A stretch of DNA of 35,441 nt from a virus (lineage: Duplodnaviria > Heunggongvirae > Uroviricota > Caudoviricetes), in the IMG/VR virus record IMGVR_UViG_2529293216_000013. One strand, 5' to 3'. The notes under the pieces were generated by a model that worked only from the letters and a program-made list of their open reading frames with translations, made no database searches and was not told where the DNA came from. Below are positions 2,126-2,668 of the stretch, piece by piece. Each line of letters opens with the position of its first letter. Within the stretch, counting starts at the first letter, position 1. The translations under genes and the position numbers were made by a program.

Positions 2126-2668
2126 TCACACTGATTGGTTAGGTAAAACGCTCCTAAGCACCATTGCGCAACCACCTCGTTCGTAATCAGCAATGTACTC
2201 AAAACCACTTTCAGTATAGTATCTTATTGCCCCATCAACTGGACTAACTAAAGCTATCGAATCAATAGATTCACCCTGAAGGTTCAGAAATCGTGCATAT
2301 GCAGAGAAGCAATCCAAAACGATACCAAGCATCTGATGGTCTAGGTCTTCATGTGCATCATTACGTTTTTCCATCCAGCAAATATGCACCGCATTTTTCG
2401 GCTTACAGTAACACCCAAATGCAAATCCAATAGGCTCCCCACGATAATAAACAACTAGTTTTATCGGGTGTTCTTCCATCATATCCATAAACACTCGCGA
2501 CTTTAGTCCGGGATCCCACCGCAGTTTATTGTTAGCCTTGAGGAACTCCATATCTTTTAGTACCAGCTCGTCGGCATATACGAGCCCTAACGACTTATGA
2601 GGGAAGCGCCCTTTTAAATACTCTGCAACATTTTTAAATACTGCTGTTTGGAAGGCTTGAAACATCAT
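2126..2668 (-). CDS. Putative acyltransferase with GNAT-like C-terminal signature (180 aa), moron cargo
   Basis: AT-rich ORF; C-terminal VSPVDGAIRYYTESGFEY resembles the GNAT terminal strand/helix signature; located between the post-Q terminator and the lysis genes. Confidence 0.35.
   Translation of the reverse strand: MMFQAFQTAVFKNVAEYLKGRFPHKSLGLVYADELVLKDMEFLKANNKLRWDPGLKSRVFMDMMEEHPIKLVVYYRGEPIGFAFGCYCKPKNAVHICWMEKRNDAHEDLDHQMLGIVLDCFSAYARFLNLQGESIDSIALVSPVDGAIRYYTESGFEYIADYERGGCAMVLRSVLPNQSV

Follow-up and report, generated by a model that had tools for sequence, protein, structure and literature searches.

What does a phage gain from a gene carried directly between its Q antiterminator and its lysis genes, in a place where related prophages carry other cargo? 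We addressed this question in IMG/VR record IMGVR_UViG_2529293216_000013, a stretch of 35,441 nucleotides from a virus of the Caudoviricetes that is referred to here as the window. On its minus strand lies an open reading frame (ORF) of 180 codons with an ATG start (positions 2126..2668), flanked by the Q antiterminator gene on one side and by lysis genes (holin, lysozyme) on the other. A preliminary description of this DNA, made from the letters alone, had taken the ORF for an AT-rich moron encoding a GNAT-type acyltransferase-like protein, with a GNAT-type toxin, an anti-defence enzyme or a host-modifying factor as candidate functions. Comparison of related loci shows that the ORF and a 61-amino-acid (aa) ORF downstream of it make up a cassette of two genes that are obligately paired and evolve together, and structure prediction assigns the 180-aa product to the GNAT fold. 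We tentatively read the pair as a prophage-borne conflict module, in which an acyl-transferring effector would be accompanied by a small partner that restrains it or is modified by it; this is the reading we favour, at somewhat less than even confidence.

Fold and cofactor site of the 180-aa protein

That the 180-aa ORF is a real gene and by no means a chance reading frame follows from its homologue clusters, its low ratio of nonsynonymous to synonymous substitutions (dN/dS) and a confident AlphaFold2 model. Among 1.84 billion proteins, homologues make up 28 clusters when grouped at 90% identity and are represented by 36 sequences at 50%, all of 173-197 aa in length apart from a few fragments, and dN/dS against relatives with unsaturated dS is 0.04-0.05. 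The reading frame contains a second ATG at 2665, which may be the true start, since most homologues begin with the 'MFxAFQ' that follows from it.

The AlphaFold2 model, computed from a 28-sequence alignment, reached a predicted local distance difference test score (pLDDT) of 86.0 and a predicted template modelling score (pTM) of 0.84. It opens with an N-terminal helix, after which all elements of the GNAT fold appear in order (β1-α1-α2-β2-β3-β4-α3-β5-α4-β6-β7), and thus contains the mixed α/β core by which the superfamily is defined (β1-α1-α2-β2-β3-β4-α3-β5-α4-β6(-β7)). Structure prediction had been put forward in the preliminary description as the test of its GNAT assignment, and it returned that fold; moreover, the segment IALVSPVDGAIRYYTESGFEY, from which the assignment had been made as a 'GNAT-like C-terminal signature', falls on β5-α4-β6 of the model. 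By its predicted structure, the 180-aa protein is a very divergent GNAT-fold protein.

At the level of sequence profiles the family is dark, being invisible to Pfam, NCBIfam and PADLOC and placed by structure prediction. The 180-aa protein gave no match in Pfam, NCBIfam or PADLOC or in a phmmer search of the PDB, and the family profile found nothing meaningful in the PDB. When the 36 members were compared with Pfam, the best match was Acetyltransf_1 with E = 0.19, obtained by one member only, and the sole sequence-family match of the 180-aa protein is PHROG 11949, a group of unknown function. Alignment of the family profile by hhalign yielded probabilities of 3.9% with RimI of E. coli and 1.0% with LasI of P. 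aeruginosa; therefore, assignment to a GNAT subfamily is impossible from the sequence, and a LuxI-like identity finds no support. In comparison with members of the superfamily such as RimI (5isv), OrfE (7ypu) and Naa20/Naa40, the protein has no sequence-level relationship that the Pfam, NCBIfam or PDB profiles detect, and it differs from them in an extra N-terminal helix, in its obligate small partner gene and in the loop between β4 and α3. In this loop, the place of the motif Q/RxxGxG/A, which binds the pyrophosphate of acetyl-CoA and for which a check had also been proposed, is occupied by R-N-D-A-H-E, which is not canonical.

The degenerate loop raises the possibility that the protein is a catalytically dead GNAT-fold scaffold, i.e. 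a sensor or adaptor that binds its partner or a ligand, or else a neutral passenger. This would be in line with the failure of any sequence profile to recognise the protein and with the variability of the loop and of the α4 tyrosines across the whole family; in the distant members, other non-glycine sequences stand in place of the loop and its surroundings. Against it speak the very strong purifying selection and the conservation pattern itself. No other block is as well conserved among the close relatives as W98-x-E-K-R-N-D-A-H-E-D-L-D-H, which contains the β4-α3 loop, and positions conserved to at least 90% in the wider family comprise Q7, D39, Y74, G85, E100 and P143. All of these are nearly invariant, and E100 lies at the catalytic end of β4 in the model, the position of the catalytic glutamate in Gcn5. 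We consider a dead scaffold or passenger improbable.

The small partner gene and the organisation of the cassette

The partner ORF (1749..1934, minus strand; PHROG 11292) encodes 61 aa and begins ~190 nt downstream of the GNAT-fold ORF. The preliminary description had pointed out that no obvious antitoxin-like partner lies upstream. This observation holds, as the 5' sequence contains only a promoter-like site (P1), the tR' terminator and the pR' promoter described below. The gene is not solitary, however: a partner gene always accompanies it on the downstream side. In every examined locus with downstream sequence (>40 loci, ~25 of them distinct), a homologue of 54-64 aa follows on the same strand after a gap of 88-226 nt, and the pairing holds even in relatives with only 20-35% identity. 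Paired loci were found in E. coli, Proteus, Pragia, Erwinia, Photorhabdus, Limnobaculum and Vibrio vulnificus, in the loci L040/L041, whose small protein resembles Aeromonas sequences, and in metagenomic contigs. Among the loci with downstream sequence, no GNAT-fold gene without a partner was seen. Furthermore, the pairwise identities of the two proteins correlate with r = 0.93 over 20 distinct loci, a value reached by none of 2000 Mantel permutations, and the small ORF is itself under strong purifying selection (dN/dS = 0.04-0.08). Taken together, the comparison of loci shows an obligate cassette of two co-evolving genes.

A single orphan small gene without a GNAT-fold gene, C-terminally truncated, was found in a decayed prophage of Xenorhabdus bovienii (L052, 3211-4162). 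There, the Q gene is followed by a gene for a 223-aa protein with Pfam matches to Tad2-like (Thoeris anti-defence) and DUF7823 families, and the truncated partner gene follows the Tad2-like gene.

The small protein has no match in Pfam or the PDB. Its model (pLDDT 75.6) shows three short helices and a disordered C-terminal tail of ~18 residues, the last of which are in most cases ...A-(x)-C or ...A-C-G. One alternative reading is an enzyme-substrate or biosynthetic pair, in which the GNAT-fold protein would not use acetyl-CoA in the canonical way and would modify the tail or employ it as carrier, precursor or signal, much as the GNAT-like enzymes LuxI, FeeM and Fem draw on acyl-ACP (acyl carrier protein) or aminoacyl-tRNA. 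However, the terminal cysteine is absent from the most distant members, no exporter, ACP or receptor gene accompanies the pair in the examined loci, and, in addition to the negligible LasI score given above, no member of the family matches the Pfam family Autoind_synth (PF00765). We regard a biosynthetic role as quite unlikely.

The pair also invites comparison with the GNAT toxin-antitoxin modules TacAT, AtaRT, KacAT and ItaRT, which likewise comprise a GNAT-fold protein of similar size in a two-gene module on mobile elements. The C-terminal regions of the antitoxins TacA and AtaR occupy the active-site groove of their toxins, and by analogy the flexible C-terminal region of the small partner could do the same. 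In a classical type II system of the TacT/AtaT/KacT kind, the GNAT-fold protein would acetylate aminoacyl-tRNA and the small protein would be its antitoxin. Yet the structural scores against TacT and AtaT are no better than those against dozens of unrelated GNATs, no profile matches, and the canonical acetyl-CoA motif is lacking. The architecture differs as well: the gene order is reversed, no RHH/DUF1778 antitoxin gene lies upstream, and the long spacer contains a promoter-like site. Moreover, both proteins are acidic, with a family median pI of 5.2 for the GNAT-fold protein and 4.9 for the partner, while tRNA binders are typically basic, and the partner shows no DNA-binding fold. A classical tRNA-acetylating toxin is thus very unlikely.

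The cassette appears to bring its own expression signals. A sigma-70-like site matching the consensus, P1 (TTGAAA-18-TAGAAT; 2696..2725, minus strand), lies upstream of the GNAT-fold ORF, and most related loci have a comparable site ~45-65 nt 5' of the start codon in otherwise unrelated surroundings. In the intergenic spacer (1935-2125, minus strand; fold z-score -2.4), a conserved promoter-like block is followed by hairpins. This block, P2 (TTGAAAAC-N-TGATGCAATCT; 2059..2087, minus strand), was recognised by alignment conservation as a putative internal promoter for the small ORF. In distant loci, the same position holds TTGACC-16-TATAAT (L039) and TTGACC-17-TAGAAT (L040), both near-consensus, and in L044 a consensus -35 element TTGACA with an 18-nt spacer and a -10 element TATTGT that matches at 4/6 positions as read by eye. 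We infer that P2 is a second promoter which, together with a structured leader, serves the small gene.

The leader (1940..2004, minus strand) comprises three hairpins (2004-1986, 1980-1968 and 1962-1950) and the ribosome-binding site AAGGGGA (1946-1940). We compared the spacer of the window with the intergenic regions of loci L005, L009-L012, L026, L028 and L038. The pairing of the first hairpin (2004-1986) is kept by compensatory changes in L026 and L028, and the equivalent hairpin has a full stem and T-run in the Erwinia, Pragia, Limnobaculum and Photorhabdus loci; it could form an attenuator leader or a short small RNA (sRNA). An Rfam scan of 1500-3000 gave sub-threshold matches only, which came from terminator hairpins. 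The cassette is closed by a strong intrinsic terminator (1666..1694, minus strand) with a 13-bp stem followed by a T-run. Of the related loci whose sequence extends far enough, nearly all likewise have a terminator-like hairpin and T-run behind the small ORF.

Cargo exchange behind Q and the spread of the cassette

Comparison with a prophage that lacks the cassette and shares the Q, DUF968 and holin genes (L051) delimits the mobile unit. By blastn, homology is confined to 2749-4700 (96.7% identity) and 1053-1478 (92.5%), so that an AT-rich block of 1.27 kb (1479..2748, minus strand) with breakpoints at 1478/1479 and 2748/2749 contains P1, the GNAT-fold ORF, P2 with its leader, the small ORF and the terminator. 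In its place, L051 has a 67-aa ORF and the first two-thirds (5' side) of a DNA methylase gene, which the block has thus replaced. GC content drops to 0.33-0.43 across ~1350-2850 compared to 0.47-0.60 on either side. The description of the locus as an AT-rich moron is thereby borne out by the GC trough, by the promoter-like site and terminator, and by the sharp limits of the swapped-in block.

The right-hand breakpoint lies inside the T-run of a tR'-like intrinsic terminator (AAAACCCGC-TGATGT-GCGGGTTTT with T-run; 2747..2774, minus strand), and two further Q-carrying prophages (L049 and L050) break at the same point, at 2748-2751. In all three prophages (two with ~96% identity, K-12 Qin with ~90%), homology ends at 2747-2751 within this T-run. 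Because three prophages lose homology at one point, our alignments suggest a preferred recombination junction for cargo exchange directly after the late terminator. Upstream of tR', between it and Q, a pR'-like site (TTGCAT-16-TAATAT; 2820..2847, minus strand) can be read from the sequence, and its position after Q leads us to infer that it acts as the late promoter pR'.

On the left-hand side, all that the window retains of an N6/N4 DNA methyltransferase gene is its 3' part (1177..1491, minus strand), identified by a partial PF01555 match and annotated as a pseudogene in RefSeq. This gene is full length in L051, which lacks the cassette, and also in L047, which has it; judged from these alignments, the methylase gene of the present lineage lost its 5' two-thirds when the cassette arrived.

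The position behind Q is open to various cargo. Of 5426 complete E. coli genomes, 2419 contain a Q homologue (≥80% coverage), but only 98 of these also have the cassette. Behind the same Q, other prophages carry cspF, cspB and ynfU (K-12 Qin), tRNAs with a SASA esterase gene, or the intact methylase. Like morons in the sense of Hendrix, the cassette is a promoter-gene(s)-terminator unit of deviant GC that is present or absent among homologous prophages with sharp boundaries, its flanking promoter-like site and terminator being of consensus level. Like the cargo of the lambdoid slot between Q and lysis genes (stx, cspB/cspF in Qin, DNA methylases), it is inserted directly after tR'. Unlike known moron cargo, the gene pair is uncharacterised, and the defence databases that were searched do not contain it. 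The comparison of loci thus shows the pair to be an autonomous mobile moron cassette.

This autonomy is also apparent from where the cassette has travelled. It follows Q genes of three families (PF03589, PF06530 and CHP02642-like), and, in temperate phages of Enterobacterales and Vibrio, the accessory slots that it was shown to occupy are of at least five further kinds; from the similarity of the partner protein, it is probably present in Aeromonas phages as well. In Pragia, the lysis cassette precedes it and a pyocin_S gene comes next. In L046, a siphovirus tail operon has taken it up, with a DUF6246 gene on one side and the tape-measure gene on the other. In L040/L041, it is antisense to the flanking phage genes and sits beside umuDC-like genes. 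In a P2-like prophage of Vibrio vulnificus (L039), it is placed between ogr and the portal gene, antisense to both. This is the GpA-GpQ hotspot of P2, which many P2 defence systems occupy (PMC13586616). The relative in L039 thereby shares its location with hotspot cargo such as old and tin.

Several of these loci deserve a closer description. In the Pragia fontium prophage (L005, 7444-9037), a Pyocin_S-domain protein of 433 aa and a 100-aa ORF are encoded directly downstream of the cassette, between the lysis and terminase genes, and possibly represent a toxin and its immunity protein. The umuD/umuC-like pair of L040/L041 (2775-4474; Peptidase_S24 and IMS polymerase) belongs to a lambdoid prophage and is also antisense to the flanking phage genes. 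In the plasmid collection, the only match was an E. coli IncX4 plasmid, a conjugative plasmid record (L045; CP044351.1, 39590-40100), in which a GNAT-fold gene copy of 67% identity was recovered by tblastn in three pieces; the record is unannotated. The split could reflect frameshifts, assembly errors or decay of the copy.

The placement downstream of Q given in the preliminary description was confirmed and extends to the pR'-like promoter and the tR' terminator. Its further notion of a Q-dependent late transcript stands only in part: the position after Q is in its favour, but the promoter-like sites of the cassette and its antisense or Q-distant placements in other phages are not. For these reasons, Q-dependence would account for at most half of the expression logic of the cassette. 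The late position nevertheless bears on another explanation, namely a counter-defence or host-takeover enzyme for lytic growth, in which a late-expressed GNAT-fold protein would acylate a host immune or metabolic protein, aided by the small protein as cofactor or as specificity subunit. GNAT-fold anti-CRISPRs do exist, and AcrVA5 acetylates Cas12a. In the window and several relatives, the cassette comes immediately behind pR'-tR' and points the same way as the late operon, and the same slot in the Xenorhabdus prophage holds the Tad2-like anti-defence gene. Conversely, the cassette has promoter-like sites and a terminator of its own wherever it goes, it is antisense to the neighbouring phage genes in L039 and L040/L041, it has reached the P2 defence hotspot, and late expression would presumably come too late for most such roles. 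We therefore consider counter-defence rather unlikely.

Around the cassette, the minus-strand order of genes is DUF968 (3645-4640), Q (2879..3631; PF03589 with E = 8e-53, PHROG 127), GNAT-fold ORF, 61-aa ORF, methyltransferase remnant, lambda-family holin (705-1136) and lysozyme (225-701). Positions 1500-2900 match a prophage of E. coli O157:H7 FRIK944, in which a flank of 13.4 kb keeps this gene order, with 100% identity and the isolated phage vB_EcoM-689R6 with 99.8%, the latter being the one record with a GNAT-fold gene found in the phage collection. Both records annotate the two ORFs of the cassette as hypothetical proteins.

The cassette as a candidate conflict module

Our preference for a prophage conflict module draws on several properties of the locus. 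These are the GNAT fold, the purifying selection and the swapped-in block with sharp breakpoints, deviant GC and alternative cargo behind the same Q; the strict linkage of the two genes in an autonomous unit, together with its antisense or Q-independent placements (L039, L040/L041 and L046); and the toxin-first order with a separate second promoter, the lone orphan partner and the presence in the P2 hotspot. Modules of the higBA/mqsRA type likewise place the toxin gene first and transcribe the second gene from an internal promoter. The likeness to higBA and mqsRA is one of architecture only, i.e. a larger effector gene first, a small partner second and a separate promoter-like site; the cassette shares no homology with them, its spacer is much longer and contains a structured, terminator-like leader, and its partner has no DNA-binding domain.

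In a lysogen, the conflict module would be transcribed from P1 and P2, with the small acidic partner made in excess from P2. In the present phage, polymerase modified by Q at pR' (2847-2820) would also read through the cassette towards the lysis genes. The GNAT-fold protein would act as the effector and transfer the acyl group, E100 being the likely catalytic base and Y150/Y151 the acid, and its target would more likely be a protein or small molecule than tRNA. The partner might check the enzyme via its flexible C-terminal tail, or might serve as its substrate or sensor. The role of the module would be anti-phage exclusion or abortive infection, following a toxin-antitoxin-like logic. A more specific version seems possible to us, albeit doubtful: a hitherto undescribed two-component system of anti-phage defence or inter-phage competition with a re-engineered cofactor loop, in which the acidic partner of 54-64 aa, under its own promoter and attenuator-like leader, gates the enzyme or senses for it.

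A number of observations weigh against the conflict module. In the β4-α3 loop (residues 102-107, R102-N-D-A-H-E107), both glycine positions of Q/R-x-x-G-x-G/A are substituted, and the Y150/Y151 pair of α4, which takes the usual position of the general acid, is absent from the most divergent clade. The cofactor may be bound via main-chain amides despite the missing glycines. Nevertheless, because of the non-canonical loop and the variable α4 tyrosines, the model makes the 180-aa protein a GNAT by fold, with an uncertain acyl donor and putative catalytic activity. The small protein shows no recognisable DNA-binding or antitoxin fold, and a structured spacer of 88-226 nt is unusual for toxin-antitoxin pairs. 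With regard to the promoters, control windows within ORFs score nearly as high in such AT-rich DNA; since the score separates poorly from these controls, we base the promoter assignments on conserved position and not on score. Neither protein of the window matches PADLOC-DB v2.0.0, in which the 36 GNAT-fold members gave three isolated weak matches, each by a single member. Literature searches by protein accession or PHROG id found nothing, and topic searches on GNAT-based prophage defence found no description of the family. Finally, the slot behind Q also carries non-defence and anti-defence cargo, such as the Tad2-like gene of L052, and for that reason location by itself is weak evidence.

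GNAT folds and morons are in themselves familiar. What appears to be undescribed is a GNAT-fold family that is dark at the sequence level, has an altered cofactor loop, is locked to a small partner and shuttles between phage slots. If the cassette is a defence or toxin-antitoxin-like system, the immunity systems of prophages would gain an effector of the acyltransferase type whose cofactor site is non-canonical, and the presence of the cassette in ~2% of complete E. coli genomes, mostly in O157:H7 prophages, would be explained. In Shiga-toxin phages, the slot after Q holds stx. Whatever its function, the cassette shows clearly how comparative genomics can link a family that is dark at the sequence level to its obligate partner, and its breakpoints reveal cargo swapping directly after tR'.
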